DNA of 64,000 bases, taken from an uncultured Actinomycetota bacterium. GTDB taxonomy: Bacteria > Actinomycetota > Actinomycetes > JADGOV01. A model generated the notes under the pieces. The model worked only from the letters and a program-made list of their open reading frames with translations. It made no database searches and was not told the DNA's origin. Where the stretch lies: assembly GCA_963814355.1 (NCBI GenBank), contig CAWFCZ010000018.1:1064141-1128140 (forward strand), in the 5' to 3' direction. Below are positions 5,347 to 12,965 of the stretch, piece after piece (the first letter of the stretch is position 1; every line of letters starts with the position of its first letter). A program made the translations under genes and the position numbers.

Positions 5347-6525
5347 ATGACGCTGCCACTCGACGGCTGCACCGTCGTCGCCCTGGAACAGGCGGTCGCC
5401 GCTCCGCTCGCCACCCGGCAGCTGGCCGATCTCGGTGCCCGAATCGTCAAGATCGAACGACCTGGGGTCGGCGACTTCGCCCGCGGCTACGACGAGACGG
5501 TGCACGGGCTGTCCAGCTACTTCGTGTGGCTCAACCGCTCGAAAGAATCGGTCACGTTGGACATCAAGGCGGCTGAGGGGGCCGAAATCCTCCACCAGCT
5601 GCTGGCGACGGCGGACGTCTTCGTGCAGAACCTGCTGCCGGGTGCGACCGCGCGGCTCGGCCTGGACGCGGACACCCTGGCCGACCGCTTCCCCCGGCTC
5701 GTGGTGTGCGACATCAGCGGGTACGGCGACACCGGCCCCTACCGCGACAAGAAGGCCTACGACCTGCTCATCCAGTGCGAGGCGGCGATCGTGGCGGTCA
5801 CCGGCACCGAGAGCGAACCGGTGAAGGTCGGGATCGCGGTGGCCGACATCGCGGCCGGAATGTACGCGTTCTCCGGCATTTTGGCCGCCCTGCTGCATCG
5901 CGAACGCACCGGGCAGACCCGGCCGGTGCAGGTGTCGATGCTGGAGGCGGTCGGCGAGTGGATGGGGCAACCGCTGCTCTACACCGCCTACGGCGGCAGC
6001 CCACCGCCGCGCCGGGGGGCTGCGCATGCCAGCATCGCGCCGTACGGGCCGTTTCGGACCGCCGACGGCACGGTGCAGCTCGGGGTGCAGAACGAGCGCG
6101 AGTGGCGGCGGTTCTGCACCGACGTGCTGGCCGCGCCGCGCCTCGCCGCAGACCAGCGGTTCGCCACCAACAGCCGGCGGATCGCCCGCCTGGCTGAGCT
6201 GACCGCGTTGATCGAGGCCACTTTCCGCCCATTGACCTCGGCGGAGGTGATCCGGCGCCTCGACGCGGCCTCGATCGCGAACGCCGCGGTCAACGATGTG
6301 GCCGCCTTCGCCGCTCACCCGCAACTCACCGCCCGGGCGCGCTGGCGGGCGGTGGGAACCCCCGCCGGGCCGGTACGGGTACTCGCCCCGCCGGCTGTCC
6401 CCGGCGGCCAGGAACCGCGGCTGGACCCGGTGCCGGCGCTGGGTGCCCACACCAAGGCCGTCCTGTCCGAACTCGGCTGGCCGGCGGGGAAGATCGCCGG
6501 GTTGCGCGAACGAGGGGTGATCTGA
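5347..6525 (+). CDS. CaiB/BaiF family III CoA-transferase
   Basis: LADLGARIVKIERP.GDFAR, NRSKES, ISGYG, AYD, PALGAHT motifs. Confidence 0.92.
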   Translation: MTLPLDGCTVVALEQAVAAPLATRQLADLGARIVKIERPGVGDFARGYDETVHGLSSYFVWLNRSKESVTLDIKAAEGAEILHQLLATADVFVQNLLPGATARLGLDADTLADRFPRLVVCDISGYGDTGPYRDKKAYDLLIQCEAAIVAVTGTESEPVKVGIAVADIAAGMYAFSGILAALLHRERTGQTRPVQVSMLEAVGEWMGQPLLYTAYGGSPPPRRGAAHASIAPYGPFRTADGTVQLGVQNEREWRRFCTDVLAAPRLAADQRFATNSRRIARLAELTALIEATFRPLTSAEVIRRLDAASIANAAVNDVAAFAAHPQLTARARWRAVGTPAGPVRVLAPPAVPGGQEPRLDPVPALGAHTKAVLSELGWPAGKIAGLRERGVI

Positions 6526-6526
6526 G

Positions 6527-7696
6527 GTGGACTCCTGGGTGCGGGATCTCCACCCGGACGAGCGGGCGATCCTCGGGGTGGTGCGCGACTTCGTCGAGCA
6601 CGAGGTGCGACCGGTCGTGGCCGAACTCGAGCACGGCAACGTCTATCCCGAGCGGCTCATCGAGGCGATGAAGGAGTTGGGAGTCTTCGGCCTCGGCGTG
6701 CCGGCGCCCTACGGCGACGTGGCGGTGTCGCTGCCGGCGTACGCCCTGATCACCGAAGAGGTGGCTCGGGGCTGGATGAGCCTGGCCGGGGCATTCGGCG
6801 GCCACACGGTGGTGGCCAAGCTGCTCGTCGAGTTCGGCACCGAGGCACAGCGGCAGGCCTACCTGCCGCGGATGGCGACCGGAGAGATTCGGGCCACCAT
6901 GGCGCTCACCGAGCCGGGCGGTGGGTCGGATCTCCAGGCGATGCGGACCGTCGCCCGGCCCGTGGACGGCGGGTATCTGGTCAACGGATCGAAGACGTGG
7001 ATCACCAATGCCCGCCGGTCCCAACTCATCGCACTGCTCTGCAAGACCGACCCGGCGGCCGACCCGCCGTACCGCGGGGTGTCGATCCTGCTCGTCGAGC
7101 ACGGACCGGGCGTTTCGGTATCCCGGGACCTGCCGAAGCTCGGCTACAAGGGCGTGGAGAGCTGCGAGCTGGCCTTCGACGACCTCGCGGTTCCGGCTGC
7201 TGCGCTGCTCGGCGGCATACCGGGAGCCGGCTTCGCGCAGATGATGCGCGGTCTGGAGGTCGGGCGGATCCAGGTGGCCGCCCGGGCGGTCGGAGTGGCC
7301 CGGGCCGCGTTCGAGGATTCGCTGCGCTACGCGCAGCTGCGGCATTCCTTCGGTAAGCCCATCTATGCCCACCAGTCGATCGGCAACTACCTCGCCGACA
7401 TGGCGACACGCCTGCAGGCCGCCCGGCTGCTCACGCTCGACGCCGCGCGGCTGGGCGAAACCGGCCAGCGGGCGGATCTGGAAGCCGGCATGGCCAAACT
7501 CTTCGCTTCGGAGGCGGCCATGGAGATCTGCCTGAACGCGGTGCGCATCCACGGCGGCTACGGGTACTCCACCGAGTTCGACGTCGAGCGCTACTTCCGG
7601 GACGCCCCACTGATGATCGTCGGCGAGGGGACCAACGAGATCCAGCGCAACATCATCGCCCGACAGTTGGTTGCCAGGCACCCGGTGCACGGATAG
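6527..7696 (+). CDS. Acyl-CoA dehydrogenase
   Basis: ALTEPGGGSD, NGSKTWITNA, IHGGYGY, IVGEGTNEIQR. Confidence 0.93.
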   Translation: MDSWVRDLHPDERAILGVVRDFVEHEVRPVVAELEHGNVYPERLIEAMKELGVFGLGVPAPYGDVAVSLPAYALITEEVARGWMSLAGAFGGHTVVAKLLVEFGTEAQRQAYLPRMATGEIRATMALTEPGGGSDLQAMRTVARPVDGGYLVNGSKTWITNARRSQLIALLCKTDPAADPPYRGVSILLVEHGPGVSVSRDLPKLGYKGVESCELAFDDLAVPAAALLGGIPGAGFAQMMRGLEVGRIQVAARAVGVARAAFEDSLRYAQLRHSFGKPIYAHQSIGNYLADMATRLQAARLLTLDAARLGETGQRADLEAGMAKLFASEAAMEICLNAVRIHGGYGYSTEFDVERYFRDAPLMIVGEGTNEIQRNIIARQLVARHPVHG

Positions 7697-7708: not shown

Positions 7709-10210
7709 TTACCCTCGGCCTTTGGGAATGATCGGTACCCGGGGACGGGGCAGCCCGGCGTTGGCCCGCGCGAGCAGGCGTTCCAGCCTCGCGGCCGACA
7801 TGGGCGGACCAAGGAAGAATCCCTGCGCCGACTCACAGCCCATCGAGACCAGATGATCACGCTGCTGGCGGTTCTCGACGCCTTCGGCCACCACCCGTAA
7901 CCCGAGGCGGTTTCCGAGGCCGAGCAAGGTTTCCACGATGGTGGCGTCGACCGGGCTGCTGAGCATGCGGGCCACGAAGGATTGGTCGATCTTGAGCTCG
8001 TGCGCGGCGACGTGGGAAAGAAAGGTCAGACAGGAGAATCCGGTCCCGAAGTCGTCGACCGACAGTTGGACGCCCACTCGGCCCAGTTGCTGGAGGACCT
8101 CGTCCACCACATCCAACTGGCGCATCATCACGGTTTCGGTGATCTCCAGGGTGAGCCGGCACGGCGCCACTGCGTACCGCTCGAGCAGCGCGGCCACATC
8201 AGCCGGTAGCGAACGATCCAGCAGGTCCCGGGCGGAGAGGTTCACCGCTACCGTGACGGCCGGATGGTCCGCGCTCCAGCCGGCGGCAGCGGCCAACGCC
8301 AGCTCGAGTACCTGCCGGGCGAGGCCGGACACCAAGTTGGACGCCTCGATGACCGGGATGAAAGAGGATGCGTCGAGTAGTTTCCCGCCGGGCGTGCGCC
8401 ACCGAGCCAGCGCTTCGGCGCCTTGGGCGGCACCGCTACGGAGGTCCATCTTGGGTTGGAAGAGCACCTCCAGCTGGCCGCGGTGCAGGCTCGGGTGCAA
8501 CTCGCTGAGTGACTTCGCCTGGCGGCCGCCGCGCCATCCGCCGGCGCGCGAGCTGCCCTGCTTCGCTACGCCGAAGCTTGGTGAGGAGCGAGTGGCCCGC
8601 AGCGCCTTTGCCCGGTACATCGCGGCATCCGCGCGGCGCAGCAGATCCGCCACGGTCACCCCATCGGCCGGCGCCAGGGCCACTCCGACGCTGGCGGCCA
8701 TCTCGATCTCGATACCGCTGATCACGGCCGGCCCGGCGAGGGCCGACAAGATGCTCGCGTTGGCCGCGGCGACATCGGGCTCACCTGCCAGGTCGGGCGC
8801 CAACACTGCGAACTCGTCGCCCCCGAGCCGGACCACGAGATCGCTGGGTCGAACACCGGACACCAAGCGCCGCCCAATCTCGCGAAGAAGCTGGTCACCC
8901 ACGTCATGGCCGAGGGAGTCGTTGACGTCCTTGAAGTGGTCCAGGTCAACCAGGAAGAGGGCCGCCCACCGGGAACCGCGGACGGCTGCGTCGACGAGTT
9001 CGGCGCCGCGCTCGGTCAACACCGTGCGGTTGGCCAGCCCGGTCAGCGCATCGTGGGCGGCTTCGTGGGCCTTGCGCTCGGCATGGCGCTCCAACTTCTC
9101 GTACAGTTCGGCATTGAGCAGGGCCGCAGTGAGCGCATGGCTGAACGTGGACAGCGCCCAGGACTCCCGCTCACTGAGCACGACCGGCGTGGCATAGAAC
9201 AGCCGAAGCTCGCCGACCCGGATCCCGGAACCCGCCAGCGCTCGGTTGACCAGACTGCCGGGCCGTTCCGGGCCGAGGGGCCGCGCCGGGGGGCCGACGG
9301 CCCCGGTCGAGCTGAGATTCAACCGACCCGGACCGCCCCGCTCCAGCAACACCTCGACGCCGTCGCAGCGAAACAGTTCGGTCGCCCGAGCCAACGCCAC
9401 GCTGAGCACGGCGGCATGGTTGAGCTGGTTGAGTTCCCGGGTGGCGGCGTCGAGTCGCTCCCACGCCTCCCGTTCCTGGACGACCCGCAAAGCGCCCGAT
9501 TGTGCGCCGTGCAACCCGCCCACGATGAAGGGCAAGGCGACGAGCGTCACGTAGTGATCTCCGGTGATCAGGAGGAAACTGATGCCCGCCAACCCGCTGG
9601 TGAAGGACAGCCCCTGACTGACCCAGAAACCGGTCCAGACTTCTCGACGAAAGGCCAACCACCGCAGCTCGCTGACAACTGCGGAAATAGCCACATTGCT
9701 GATCAGCGAGTAGCCAAGGGCAGCCGCGATCAATAGCAGTATGGCGGTCCCCGACATGTCCAGCGGCGGTGGATTCCCTAGTCGACCGAAGGCGACGACG
9801 ACGACGAGCGTGCCCAGCGTCGCGACTCCGGCGTTGTACAGGCTCTTCGCCGTCCCGCGCCGGGCAGTGGCGTGGGCGAGGCCACTACCGAGCCAGGTGA
9901 CCAGTAACAGGTCAGGTCCGGCCAGCAACCCCAGACCGAGAACAAGCGGGACCTCGTCCCACACATGGGCTACCCGATCGGCGCGGAATTGCAGCCGCAA
10001 CGGCATCCGGTTGGCGCAGACAATTAGGGACGCAATGACTAGTGATAGCCCAGCGCGTACCGCAGGCGGCATATCGCCGGCAGCCGTGCTCACGGCGCGC
10101 TGCAGGCTGAGGACCACCACACCCGTTGCACTGGTGATGACACCGGTGAGTAGAACACGCCGCCGAAGCGCGTCGCCCGCGCCGGTATCCGGCGAGATCG
10201 CGGTCATCAC
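7709..10210 (-). CDS. Membrane-anchored diguanylate cyclase/phosphodiesterase (multi-TM N-terminus, GAF-like linker, GGDEF, EAL)
   Basis: HDALTGLANR, DLDHFKDVND, RLGGDEF, EAL (AEALARW), LEITE, DDFGTG, VVAEGVE; hydrophobic first ~235 aa. Confidence 0.93.
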   Translation of the reverse strand: MMTAISPDTGAGDALRRRVLLTGVITSATGVVVLSLQRAVSTAAGDMPPAVRAGLSLVIASLIVCANRMPLRLQFRADRVAHVWDEVPLVLGLGLLAGPDLLLVTWLGSGLAHATARRGTAKSLYNAGVATLGTLVVVVAFGRLGNPPPLDMSGTAILLLIAAALGYSLISNVAISAVVSELRWLAFRREVWTGFWVSQGLSFTSGLAGISFLLITGDHYVTLVALPFIVGGLHGAQSGALRVVQEREAWERLDAATRELNQLNHAAVLSVALARATELFRCDGVEVLLERGGPGRLNLSSTGAVGPPARPLGPERPGSLVNRALAGSGIRVGELRLFYATPVVLSERESWALSTFSHALTAALLNAELYEKLERHAERKAHEAAHDALTGLANRTVLTERGAELVDAAVRGSRWAALFLVDLDHFKDVNDSLGHDVGDQLLREIGRRLVSGVRPSDLVVRLGGDEFAVLAPDLAGEPDVAAANASILSALAGPAVISGIEIEMAASVGVALAPADGVTVADLLRRADAAMYRAKALRATRSSPSFGVAKQGSSRAGGWRGGRQAKSLSELHPSLHRGQLEVLFQPKMDLRSGAAQGAEALARWRTPGGKLLDASSFIPVIEASNLVSGLARQVLELALAAAAGWSADHPAVTVAVNLSARDLLDRSLPADVAALLERYAVAPCRLTLEITETVMMRQLDVVDEVLQQLGRVGVQLSVDDFGTGFSCLTFLSHVAAHELKIDQSFVARMLSSPVDATIVETLLGLGNRLGLRVVAEGVENRQQRDHLVSMGCESAQGFFLGPPMSAARLERLLARANAGLPRPRVPIIPKGRG

Positions 10211-10423
10211 CGTGCCATTTCTACTCGGTTATCGATTCGGAATGCGACGGTAAACACCGGCAGCCGACACCTGCGCTCCCAGAAGTTCGGTGAGCGATCG
10301 TCGCTGTGCGTAAGGTATCGGCTACCAGGCGCCGACAGTCGCCGCATGGCCGTACCAGACCCGTGCGGTGCGGTACAGGCAGTCGGAGCAATTGGGCATT
10401 GGGGGCTTAGAAGGGGGGTAGCC

Positions 10424-10450
10424 ATGAACCGCGGCAGGATCTGGACCTGA
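10424..10450 (+). CDS. Putative 8-aa micropeptide MNRGRIWT
   Basis: AGAAGGGGGG SD-like tract 5 nt before ATG; ATG AAC CGC GGC AGG ATC TGG ACC TGA; divergent from GGDEF-EAL gene. Confidence 0.4.
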   Translation: MNRGRIWT

Positions 10451-10462
10451 CAGTACTGTCAG
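10447..10462. promoter_or_regulatory. Perfect 16-bp palindrome CTGACAGTACTGTCAG
   Basis: Directly visible; overlaps micro-ORF stop codon; function unknown. Confidence 0.55.
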
Positions 10463-10472
10463 TGCGCCCCGT

Positions 10473-10517
10473 TTACCACCAGTTACGGGGATTACTACCG
10501 AGGGTGCCTGAGTGCAT
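10473..10517 (-). CDS. Putative 14-aa micropeptide MHSGTLGSNPRNWW
   Basis: ATG at 10517 to TAA at 10473; no clear SD; co-directional with GGDEF-EAL gene. Confidence 0.25.
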   Translation of the reverse strand: MHSGTLGSNPRNWW

Positions 10518-10638
10518 ACACAGAGCTAGTTCATAGCGTTGTGTTATGCCTCTTTCGTCGGTGTATGCCGGTCTGGCGTCAGCCGGTCTGGGGTACGCCG
10601 ACGGGCAACCCGGCCAGCGCACTCCGACACGGTCGACG

Positions 10639-11349
10639 TCACTGGTGCGCGACGTGGGCGGCTGCCACCAGGGCAGCGAACAGGCGCCCATCAGTGCCGA
10701 CCTCCGGGTGCCAGAGAACCCCGAGTGCGAAGCAGTGCCCGGGTAGTTCCAGCGCTTCGATCGCGCCGTCCGGGGCCCACGCGCTGGCCCTGGCCGAGCC
10801 GCTGCTGTCGACACCCTGGTGGTGGTACGAGCGAACGGTCACCCGCTCGCCGAGGATGTCCGCCGCCCGGGATCCCGGCGCCAGGTCGACGGCGTGTTCG
10901 CCGAAGGCACCGTGGCTCGGTCGATGCTCGTCGTGCCCGACGACGTCGGGCAGGTGCTGGTGCAGGGTGCCGCCACCGGCCACCGCCATCAGCTGCATGC
11001 CGCGGCAGATCCCGAGTACGGGTAGATCGCAGCGGATCGCAGCGGCCAGGAGCGCGAGCTCGCTGATGTCCCGCTCGGGGCGCGGCGCTTCGGTGGCCGG
11101 GTGACGCTGCGCGCCGTAGTGGGCCGGGTCGATGTCCGCGCCACCGGTCAACACCAGGCCGTCGAGCCGGGCAACCACCTCTTCGGCGCCATCGGGCAGG
11201 TCCGGCGGCAGCAGGACCGCTCGGCCGCCGGAAGCGACGACGGGTTCGACGTAGCGGTGCGGCAGAAGCGTGGCGACCAGCTCCCATCGGCCCCAGCGCA
11301 CCGGTTCGATGTACGCGGTGAGGCCGATCACGGGACGCACCGGGGGCAC
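10639..11349 (-). CDS. Gamma-glutamyl-gamma-aminobutyrate hydrolase family (peptidase C26, class I glutamine amidotransferase)
   Basis: LDGLVLTGGADIDP, LGICRGMQ (catalytic Cys), SYHHQ, WHPE. Confidence 0.92.
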   Translation of the reverse strand: MPPVRPVIGLTAYIEPVRWGRWELVATLLPHRYVEPVVASGGRAVLLPPDLPDGAEEVVARLDGLVLTGGADIDPAHYGAQRHPATEAPRPERDISELALLAAAIRCDLPVLGICRGMQLMAVAGGGTLHQHLPDVVGHDEHRPSHGAFGEHAVDLAPGSRAADILGERVTVRSYHHQGVDSSGSARASAWAPDGAIEALELPGHCFALGVLWHPEVGTDGRLFAALVAAAHVAHQ

Positions 11350-11381
11350 GGTATCCCGTCGTTACCGCCTAACGAACCGGA

Positions 11382-12965
11382 TCAGCCGCCGTGGACGGCC
11401 ACCGCGGCCGCCCGGCGCGGATCCCCGGCCGCGGTCAGGCCGACCTCGGGCGAGTACAGCGCGGCTCCAACACCGCCGAAGTACATCGCGAGTTCGTGGT
11501 GCGACCGGGTCAGGTACGCCGACTCCGACAGCAAAGGCGACCCCGACAGAGTCTCCGACAGCGCAGCCGGCAGCAGGTCCAGGTCCTCCTCGTGTTCGAG
11601 CACCGGTCCATCCGCGGTGTGTCGGACGTGCAGCCGGGGCCAGCGAATGGCCTGCTCGAGACTCAGCCCGCCACCGGCGAAACCGGCGAGAACCTGGAGC
11701 AGTGCGGTGGTGATCCGGTCCGCACCGGGCGACCCGACTGCCAGCACCGCGCCGTCCGGGCGCCGGCCCACGGTGGGCGCCATGTTCGAGGCCAGCCGCT
11801 CGCCGGGGCGCAAGGCATGCAGCCCGTGCGGGTTCAGCTCCGGCTCGCCCAGCGCGCTGTTGAGCCACAATCCGGTACCGGGCACCATCACCCCCGAGCC
11901 GTACCCGTCGGAGGCGGTGATCGCGCAGGCGGTGCCCTCGCCGTCCACCACTGAGACGTTCAGCGTCGACGGCGCCTCCAGCGGGACGGCGCCGCCGGCG
12001 GCGACCATCGCCAGCAGTTCCGCGGCGGCCGCCACCCGGTCCTCGGCGAGGTCCAGCCGGTCCCGGCGGTAGCGCAGCACCCGGTCCTGCACGTCCACCA
12101 GATGCGCCACGTCGACGGCCGTCCAGCGCCCGTGCGGCCGGCCGGCCATCAGGGCCAGCATGGCGGCCAACACCGGCCCGCCGATCGACGGCGGCGGGTT
12201 CGTCCCGAGCTGCCAGTCCCCGGCCGCCACGGCCAGCGACCGGCGCAGCGCGGGACGGTACCGGGCCAGGTCCAACGCGGTGAGCAGGCCGTCGTGTGCG
12301 GCCATGTCGGCCACGATGAGGTCGGCCACCTCGCCGGTGTAGAAGGCCACGGCGCCGTCGGCCGCCAGCGCCTCCAAGGTCTCGGCCAGGTGCGGAATGT
12401 GCACCCGGTCACCTTCGGCGAGCAGCGACCCGCTGCTGTCGTGCAGCGCCCGGTAGCTGTCCGGGCTGCGGGAGAAGATGGCGTCGTGGCTGTACGCCAG
12501 GTAGTACGCCGAGGCGCGGCCGAGCGGGAAGCCCAAGCGGGCGACCTCGATCGCCGGCGCGAGCACCTCCGTCCACGGCACCCGGCCGAAGCGGAGGTGA
12601 GCGGCGGCGTACCCGGCCAGCGCGCCCGGCGTGGCTACCGAGCCGTATCCCACGGTCGCCGTGACCCCGCCCCCGTAGGCCATGTCGACGTGCTCGACTC
12701 CCCGCCCGAAGCGATCGGCCGGCAGGCCCGACCCGGCCATGGCCACGCCCCCGTCGACCGTTACCGGATCGCCGCCGGCCGGGGCGACGGTGAGATAGGC
12801 CCCACCGGCCAGCGCGCACATCCCCGGCTCACTCACCTGGGACACGAGCACGGCCGCCAGGGCGGCGTCGATAGCGTTGCCACCCGACTCTGCGACGCGG
12901 ACTCCGGCGGCGGCGGCCAGTGAGTTGCACGCCGAAACCGCCACGGGTGTCCCGGCGGTGGTCAT
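11382..12965 (-). CDS. Gamma-glutamyltransferase family protein
   Basis: GGNAIDAA, SVATPG, ST.NVSVVD (Ntn Thr), SNMAPT, GSPGADRI, DPRR. Confidence 0.88.
   Translation of the reverse strand: MTTAGTPVAVSACNSLAAAAGVRVAESGGNAIDAALAAVLVSQVSEPGMCALAGGAYLTVAPAGGDPVTVDGGVAMAGSGLPADRFGRGVEHVDMAYGGGVTATVGYGSVATPGALAGYAAAHLRFGRVPWTEVLAPAIEVARLGFPLGRASAYYLAYSHDAIFSRSPDSYRALHDSSGSLLAEGDRVHIPHLAETLEALAADGAVAFYTGEVADLIVADMAAHDGLLTALDLARYRPALRRSLAVAAGDWQLGTNPPPSIGGPVLAAMLALMAGRPHGRWTAVDVAHLVDVQDRVLRYRRDRLDLAEDRVAAAAELLAMVAAGGAVPLEAPSTLNVSVVDGEGTACAITASDGYGSGVMVPGTGLWLNSALGEPELNPHGLHALRPGERLASNMAPTVGRRPDGAVLAVGSPGADRITTALLQVLAGFAGGGLSLEQAIRWPRLHVRHTADGPVLEHEEDLDLLPAALSETLSGSPLLSESAYLTRSHHELAMYFGGVGAALYSPEVGLTAAGDPRRAAAVAVHGG

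Follow-up and report, generated by a model that had tools for sequence, protein, structure and literature searches.

A reading frame of eight codons in a 64,000-nucleotide stretch of DNA from an uncultured Actinomycetota bacterium (contig CAWFCZ010000018.1; the whole stretch, G000:C18:1064141-1128140 with G000 as its genome, is called the window here) is a genuine stand-alone micro-gene, which encodes MNRGRIWT and belongs to a family of peptides of 6-9 residues with a tryptophan near the C-terminus. The genes of this family are genetically coupled to membrane enzymes of cyclic di-GMP (c-di-GMP) turnover that share a domain of seven transmembrane (TM) helices, whose predicted fold resembles the S-components of energy-coupling factor (ECF) transporters. 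The window's open reading frame (ORF) occupies positions 10424-10450 of the plus strand and reads ATG AAC CGC GGC AGG ATC TGG ACC TGA. A Shine-Dalgarno (SD) site, GAAGGGGGG (10410-10418, +; AGAAGGGGGG, 10409-10418, when read one base longer), lies 5 nt ahead of the ATG, and the SD and the 27-nt ORF together (10410-10450, +) are present just as the original prediction had described them. The ATG lies 213 nt from the start (10210) of an 833-aa GGDEF-EAL gene in divergent orientation, inside an intergenic gap of 428 bp (10211-10638). The gap had been rightly recognised, and its context needs one correction: both neighbours are minus-strand genes, so that the micro-ORF points away from the GGDEF-EAL gene (divergent) and towards the Peptidase_C26 gene on the right (10639-11349, -; convergent), beyond which lies a gamma-glutamyltranspeptidase (GGT) gene. 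The plus strand carries no same-strand gene 3' of the micro-ORF. The frame is open from an upstream ATG at 10346 as well (34 aa); the SD precedes the internal ATG.

The GTDB family and order of the window organism comprise four genomes only, and the enzyme orthologues in the other three are 66% (G001), 61% (G002) and 54% (G003) identical to the window gene. The micro-ORF is found at the orthologous site in all three genomes of the genus, where it encodes MNRGRIWT in G000, MLSTIWD in G001 (GAAGGGGGG-N9-ATG CTG AGC ACT ATC TGG GAC TAA) and MPHNKIWT in G002 (GAAGGGAGG-N7-ATG CCG CAC AAC AAG ATC TGG ACG TAA). One or the other of these SD 9-mers stands ahead of the orthologous micro-ORFs in loci L002, L003 and L074. 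The orthologous upstream regions barely align apart from a single block, which is the micro-ORF block, and across the genus the start, frame and stop survive full turnover of codons 2-5, ACC/ACG and TGA/TAA substitutions and a change of 3 nt in length. The strict form of the element (SD, 4-12 codons, I-W-x-stop) has a single occurrence on the two strands of the 4.36-Mb genome G000. Of a loose form, a short SD-led ORF with a W close to its end, there are 568 instances, or 0.065 per kb per strand, and at that rate one loose match in a 428-bp gap is unremarkable by itself. The pattern GAAGGGRGG-N4-12-ATG-N6-15-ATCTGG has matches in 4 of 401 genomes of the class, namely in G000, G001 and G002 at the orthologous site and in a fourth genome out of frame, and its reversed control has 0.

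The same conserved bases could in principle belong to no gene at all, forming instead a 5' untranslated element of the minus-strand transcript or a protein-binding site in the GGDEF-EAL promoter. Blocks conserved in the genus (CCAGAT and CCCCCCTTC, minus strand) could be RNA or operator elements, and a perfect 16-bp palindrome lies over the stop codon. The start, frame and stop are nevertheless kept through a 3-nt indel amid unalignable sequence, and the synonymous changes, variable stops and SD spacing seen across the family, described below, have no non-coding explanation. The palindrome (halves CTGACAGT and ACTGTCAG, 10447-10462), which could be a regulator site or a small hairpin, is not kept in L002 or L003. 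An explanation without a gene is thus very improbable.

The family extends well beyond the genus. A strict-pattern scan of the whole collection, with one genome per GTDB species, returned 40 matches, of which two were G001 and G002 and one was an informative locus in Jatrophihabitans; the other 37 (13 in frame) come close to the number estimated beforehand for chance. In the metagenome-assembled genome (MAG) of this Jatrophihabitans sp., AGAAGGGAGG-N7-ATG AAG AAC CTG ATC TGG ATC TGA encodes MKNLIWI about 280 nt from, and divergent to, a 466-aa multi-TM GGDEF gene, an independent occurrence of the same architecture. Among 30 homologues of that TM-GGDEF gene, 26 have divergent SD-led ORFs of 6-9 codons in the 700 nt upstream, which end in W-x-stop or sometimes in W-stop or W-x-x-stop, and which include tandem examples such as 5x MRGWHWTR, 4x MNNVTWR, 3x MSNHGW and 2-3x MLDNWRWP. 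These upstream regions, 21.9 kb in total, contain 49 distinct ORFs on the divergent strand, whereas the sense strand has 4 and the genome-wide rate in G000 would predict 1.4; the enrichment upstream of homologues that the original prediction had proposed as a check is therefore present. As a control, imperfect because nine of the regions are shorter than 450 nt, the sequence upstream of 26 further GGDEF-EAL genes from the class gave 2 dissimilar matches.

A profile of the TM domain of these proteins (A2) was found in 25 of 201 sampled genomes of the class, from 8 families. Divergent W micro-ORFs accompany 20 of the 26 new loci (one, 'VTW', is doubtful), and 3 loci have junk matches on the sense strand. 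Arrays of MRDNTWT with eight, seven and five copies are found in three species of one genus, eight being the array maximum, and other loci carry 5x MRANSWD, 4x MRDNHWTP and 3x MRDNKWSR. At least one micro-ORF lies within 1 kb in 51 of the 60 membrane-GGDEF loci sampled, and in 52 once L090 is rescued by a looser SD; with the three genus genomes, this bears out, and well exceeds, the earlier impression that Trp micro-ORFs flank related actinobacterial genes. The basic R-G-x-x-W motif that had been singled out is not what is conserved: the common features are a length of 6-9 residues, a Trp that is last, second-to-last or third-to-last, and often an Arg at position 2. When the Trp requirement is dropped (SD-led, 4-12 codons), the divergent strand yields 106 W-containing and 31 W-free ORFs, the sense strand 2 and 20, respectively. 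All of these census figures are descriptive counts given without P-values because related genomes are not independent, and no claim hangs alone on L109 (genome G425) or on six control loci, which come from genomes flagged as unpublished. Outside the Actinomycetes, two Opitutia/Opitutales MAGs (L050, L051) carry identical SD-led micro-ORFs encoding MSGWKIWV.

Genome G000 has four members of the receptor superfamily, three of which, the window gene among them, have micro-ORFs, and a paralogue on C15 that has none. The second module encodes MRSTQWG and VRSTQWG (C18:365463-366167) and the third two copies of MRQRGRQWT (C5:177732-178415). An unbiased search of G000 for similar neighbouring micro-ORFs returns the C18 and C5 arrays, and its other matches look like simple repeats or dissimilar chance pairs. 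The window-type peptide of G001, MLSTIWD, resembles the other peptide type of the genus (xxSTQWG). Around the second module (L148, G000:C18:359500-372500), a gene for a PilZ domain, a c-di-GMP receptor, lies immediately upstream of the transporter gene of the module, and the two micro-ORFs are followed by a gene for a Laminin_G domain. At G000:C26:43021-43700 the units of a tandem repeat (period 144 bp) each read as an SD-led MRRRR mini-ORF; this is probably a simple repeat.

The peptide sequence in the arrays is under purifying selection. Across 109 pairs of copies within arrays, codon differences are synonymous in 91 cases and non-synonymous in 15, stop codons differ in 19 of the pairs, and divergence is 5.8% in ORF nucleotides against 61% in the 30 nt past the stop (ungapped comparison). 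All residues are kept between copies and not the Trp alone. The arrays look like stand-alone transcription units, as those in L105 and L114 end in GC-rich hairpins and the same-strand gene after an array is variable or missing. For the array of seven MRDNTWT copies (L126:500-1800), the matching runs among RNA-library contigs are all small-share soil metatranscriptome contigs; two runs of two studies cover 818-968 and 861-893 (distal copies) and 567-838, with the proximal copies uncovered. This coverage is at most a hint of expression, as DNA carry-over is possible and the contigs carry neither strand nor level.

The placement of the micro-ORFs recalls the leader peptides of attenuators such as TnaC and the trp, erm and cat leaders, in which an intergenic SD-led ORF of a few codons has its key residues near the stop. 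Translation itself could accordingly be the signal, with the ribosome serving as a sensor of Trp-tRNA supply or of a ribosome-binding compound and the outcome read, instead of through the peptide, through the RNA, by antisense or promoter interference with the divergent or convergent neighbour. The single invariant Trp codon near the stop would suit this, much as in termination-arrest leaders such as TnaC, and a same-strand gene does follow 100-250 nt on in G002 (MFS) and in the L088-L103 group (alpha/beta-hydrolase). In contrast to attenuators, the Trp micro-ORFs often have no regulated gene in cis, as in the window and many arrays, and they form arrays of identical copies, an arrangement not known for attenuators, with selection on every residue and not only on the Trp. 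At the window the gene that comes next (10639-11349) has the opposite orientation, the RNA around the micro-ORF folds no better than shuffled sequence (z +0.69), and Rfam gives no match below E 0.7 in 9900-11300. Signalling by the act of translation is hence quite improbable.

The adjacent enzyme gene (7709-10210, -) has the make-up that had been predicted for it, with a membrane region and intact GGDEF and EAL parts. Pfam matches place the GGDEF domain at aa 384-536 (8603-9061, -; PF00990, E 1.1e-40, 139.5 bits against a cut-off of 23.8) and the EAL domain at aa 571-803 (7802-8500, -; PF00563, E 2.4e-62, 210.8 bits against a cut-off of 31.3). The translation contains RLGGDEFAVL and an RxxD I-site, RPSD, on the GGDEF side and GAEALARW, N, E-x-T-E, SVDDFGTG, HELKIDQ, AEGVEN and QG on the EAL side, and the catalytic motifs of both domains are intact as judged from these residues. 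Residues 1-380 match no Pfam family at E<=1, PF07694 included, and no NCBIfam entry. An AlphaFold2 model of these residues (pLDDT 89.5, pTM 0.85) contains about seven TM helices and a beta-hairpin (71-82), followed by a GAF-like domain and then by a long helix that leads towards the GGDEF domain. The GAF-like assignment (~aa 250-345; 9176-9463, -) is drawn from secondary structure, from Z scores of 13-15 to GAF domains and from a Foldseek E of 2e-3. The N-terminal seven-TM sensor module (~aa 1-245; 9476-10210, -) aligns in VIA-align to 4m5c_A, the S-component of a NikM-type metal transporter, with Z 16.1 over 191 of 214 residues (rmsd 3.1), and to FolT, BioY, ThiT, RibU and CbiM with Z 12-14 (13.9 to 4huq_S, 13.5 to 5d0y_A and 12.7 to 4dve_A), values to be read with the aligner's caution that helical bundles need Z above about 13; the Foldseek E values of these S-component matches are weak, at 0.02-0.03. 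On this model, the domain has an ECF S-component-like fold.

Receptors of the 5TMR-LYT type (LytS, BtsS, GdpS) similarly have a membrane S-component fold fused to GAF and to GGDEF or EAL domains, and for these the fold has been argued to bind a small ligand (PMC11109136). They differ from the window protein in that its domain has no PF07694 match, the known ligand of the 5TMR-LYT class is a small metabolite (pyruvate for BtsS), and no adjacent micro-ORFs are reported for that system.

BLASTP finds no significant match between the TM domain of the window enzyme and that of the other linked enzymes. Comparison of profiles with hhalign, in contrast, matches the window TM profile (A3) to A2 with a probability of 82% and E 1e-5 when built from 4 sequences, and with 96.2% and E 2.2e-9 over 218 columns once 66 representatives of 553 sequences found are added. 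The profiles thus indicate homology between the TM domain of the window enzyme and that encoded by the other GGDEF genes linked to micro-ORFs. In a maximum-likelihood tree of 60 TM domains the peptide type tracks the receptor clade: the paralogues of G191 carry different peptides (MRDNKWSR, MRANSWD and MRDNHWTP), and orthologues in G058 and G191 share MRANSWD. Such tracking is what specific peptide-receptor pairs would be expected to give, and linkage alone could do likewise.

A third gene, for a DHA3/MFS_3-like transporter of the major facilitator superfamily (MFS), lies within the 1.5-kb flanks of 23 of the 60 loci. Twenty loci were taken with 6-kb flanks, and L150, L151, L154 and L155 were dropped because ORF calling based on GC3 (GC content at third codon positions) missed their central genes; 10 of the 16 annotated loci that were left have the MFS gene as the immediate neighbour of the GGDEF gene or of the array. 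Its order is variable and includes a GGDEF-MFS operon with a divergent array, an MFS gene convergent with the array, an MFS gene tail-to-tail with the GGDEF gene, and two tandem modules. The MFS gene is thus a frequent but not universal partner, and no other partner recurs across clades in the 16 annotated loci. Only one orthologue group has genes for an alpha/beta-hydrolase and an HtrA-like protease nearby, and a ThiF-nitroreductase gene (L152) and a P450 gene (L161) are each found at one of the 16 loci. At the window-type locus G002 and G003 have an orthologous MFS gene, which G000 and G001 lack. The gene of G002, which matches MFS_1 and MFS_3, follows about 100 nt after the micro-ORF. The micro-ORF is not merely a leader of the MFS gene, because G000 and G001 keep the micro-ORF without the MFS orthologue. 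Two complete modules of array, TM-GGDEF gene and MFS gene stand head-to-tail within about 6.5 kb in L162 and L167 (G409:C33, G411:C9), which suggests that the whole cassette duplicates in tandem.

The transporter raises the question of whether the peptides are secreted bioactive products, such as antimicrobials, metal-binding peptides or precursors modified elsewhere, with the MFS protein for export or self-protection and the GGDEF enzyme as a co-regulated neighbour or self-sensor. Peptide natural products typically have their precursor genes in several copies, and ThiF enzymes (MccB) are known to adenylate the precursors of microcin C. The 910-aa ThiF and nitroreductase fusion gene of L152 (475-3204, in G108) is about 1 kb from the MFS gene of a module with seven MRDNTWT copies, and L161 has its P450. 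The layout as such is that of microcin C, for which PMC4010828 describes a directly translated peptide of seven residues (MccA), encoded by one of the smallest genes known, together with an MFS exporter (MccC) in the cluster. However, no modifying enzyme recurs with the Trp peptides, since ThiF and P450 genes are each confined to one of the 16 loci and lie outside the window, where no ThiF gene is present among the neighbours scanned. The peptides do not have the C-terminal Asn that adenylation of the microcin C type needs, and that of the window ends in Thr. The only constant partner of the Trp micro-ORFs is the membrane GGDEF enzyme, which microcin C clusters lack. A role as secreted products is therefore improbable, if somewhat less so than one for translation as such.

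The reading that leads, because Trp micro-ORFs flank homologues widely and their arrays are under purifying selection, is that of a peptide and its receptor, in which the adjacent enzyme senses peptides that are exported unprocessed and in turn sets c-di-GMP; we give this reading tentatively, at a little under an even chance. The peptide would be made from its own short transcript with a strong SD, and the 2-8 tandem copies at other loci would raise its dose. It may be exported by the neighbouring DHA3/MFS_3-type transporter where one is present, and would then bind in the ligand pocket of the seven-TM module of the adjacent enzyme. A signal passing through the GAF-like domain could shift the balance between synthesis by the GGDEF domain and hydrolysis by the EAL domain, such that the concentration of the peptide would set that of c-di-GMP. 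Paralogous modules of one genome with different peptides would form separate channels. The window locus has the divergent W micro-ORF and the shared seven-TM domain and no neighbouring DHA3/MFS_3-type transporter. With one peptide copy and a GGDEF-EAL output it is a reduced module, which has lost an MFS gene that its congener G002 keeps.

Several observations weigh against this reading. The micro-ORF is found in the TM-GAF-GGDEF-EAL subfamily of the window enzyme only within the genus; it is absent from the G003 orthologue (L004), where a divergent MFS gene occupies its position, from the C15 paralogue of G000 and from six full-length homologues of other families (L005-L010), apart from one dissimilar match in L010. 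The lack of micro-ORFs beside the homologues of other families fits a possible capture, at the level of the genus, of a cassette of peptide and MFS genes by the GGDEF-EAL gene of the window. In the wider census 8 of the 60 loci are without a micro-ORF. No MFS gene accompanies the module at the window locus, and at least 6 of the 16 annotated loci likewise lack one. The co-variation of peptide and receptor may reflect physical linkage only, because the genes duplicate together, and a consensus promoter scan of window positions 10150-10700 returned no promoter. Translation of the peptide, its export, its binding and the direction of its effect on c-di-GMP are steps that we infer, export by the MFS protein is a guess, and we know of no exit route from actinobacterial cells for leaderless peptides of 6-9 residues.

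A rival view is that the peptide acts within the cell that makes it, where it would stay in the cytoplasm or membrane and modulate the adjacent enzyme or the MFS transporter directly. It would then resemble, at a much smaller size, the small proteins by which membrane sensors are tuned, and cells would not signal to one another. The linkage, selection and co-diversification support this view as well as they support a sensed, exported peptide; moreover, none of the peptides has a leader or signal sequence, the MFS gene can be missing, and tandem copies would offset rapid turnover. Conversely, free heptapeptides in the cytoplasm are expected to be short-lived, and the recurrence of the MFS partner in shuffled gene orders suggests transport. 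Pockets of the S-component type face the outside (PMC11109136), as is generally understood for ECF S-components. Action inside the cell is accordingly unlikely, yet it is the most credible of the alternatives to a peptide sensed from outside.

A peptide sensed by an adjacent membrane receptor invites comparison with the Agr and Com systems of Gram-positive bacteria (AgrD/AgrB/AgrC and ComX/ComQ/ComP), the quorum-sensing analogy drawn in the original prediction. In both cases a short peptide gene adjoins the gene of a polytopic membrane receptor and the two co-diversify into specificity groups, and the activity of ComX depends on a Trp residue. Unlike Agr and Com, the Trp module lacks a leader, a histidine kinase and any enzyme for processing or modification, its predicted output is c-di-GMP turnover, its receptor fold is S-component-like and its peptide genes have 6-9 codons and are often in tandem. 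The window peptide has 8 residues in all and its receptor has no kinase domain. The analogy is therefore functional only, because no part is homologous.

The remaining features of the window locus are minor. A hairpin, CCCCGT-12 nt-ACGGGG (10467-10490, +), seen in minimum-free-energy and centroid folds, is a possible terminator without a U-tail; the evidence for it is weak, as it was not called in the strict terminator scan, and a consensus terminator scan of 10150-10700 gave none. A tRNA search of the window was negative. A 72-aa ORF on the minus strand (10207-10425) starts in a CATG shared with the micro-ORF ATG and at its end overlaps the GGDEF-EAL start by an ATGA; considered as a coupled upstream ORF, it was rejected, having no Pfam match and an ATG that is not kept in L002 (G001). 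A metagenome scan for relatives of the N-terminal domain returned a single locus, L041, from the same organism as G002, and added nothing. The neighbouring genes are those of a CoA-transferase and an acyl-CoA dehydrogenase on one side of the enzyme gene (5347-7696) and of the C26 peptidase and GGT on the other (10639-12965). In an unrelated carrier (L159:2217-5678, in G431) the TM-GGDEF gene is likewise flanked by genes for GGT and an AidB-type acyl-CoA dehydrogenase, which is either a coincidence or a link to gamma-glutamyl or peptide metabolism.

Peptide signalling is viewed as a speciality of the Firmicutes, whereas the signals associated with actinobacteria are butyrolactones and similar small molecules. 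A full-text literature search that included six peptide strings, and whose scope did not extend to supplements and subscription journals, found the micro-ORFs nowhere described, and the family is apparently undescribed so far. It is possible, though we consider it distinctly short of an even chance, that the modules form a widespread and previously unrecognised system of cell-to-cell signalling in actinomycetes, in which unprocessed Trp peptides exported by MFS transporters reach receptors of the S-component fold on c-di-GMP enzymes through private channels. If so, no known signal genes would be smaller than those of the Trp peptides, which tandem arrays amplify, and a genome could hold several private peptide-receptor channels, three in the window organism with that of the window included. 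A peptide input would provide ligands for a large class of orphan membrane GGDEF/EAL proteins, and a synthetic heptapeptide with its receptor would be a testable pair for signalling by S-component-fold receptors. Genes of 21-27 nt would further be able to form conserved and amplified families that are invisible to annotation pipelines. The arrays, the selection on the peptide and the three-gene module would remain a robust family finding even if the peptides act inside the cell or as secreted products.

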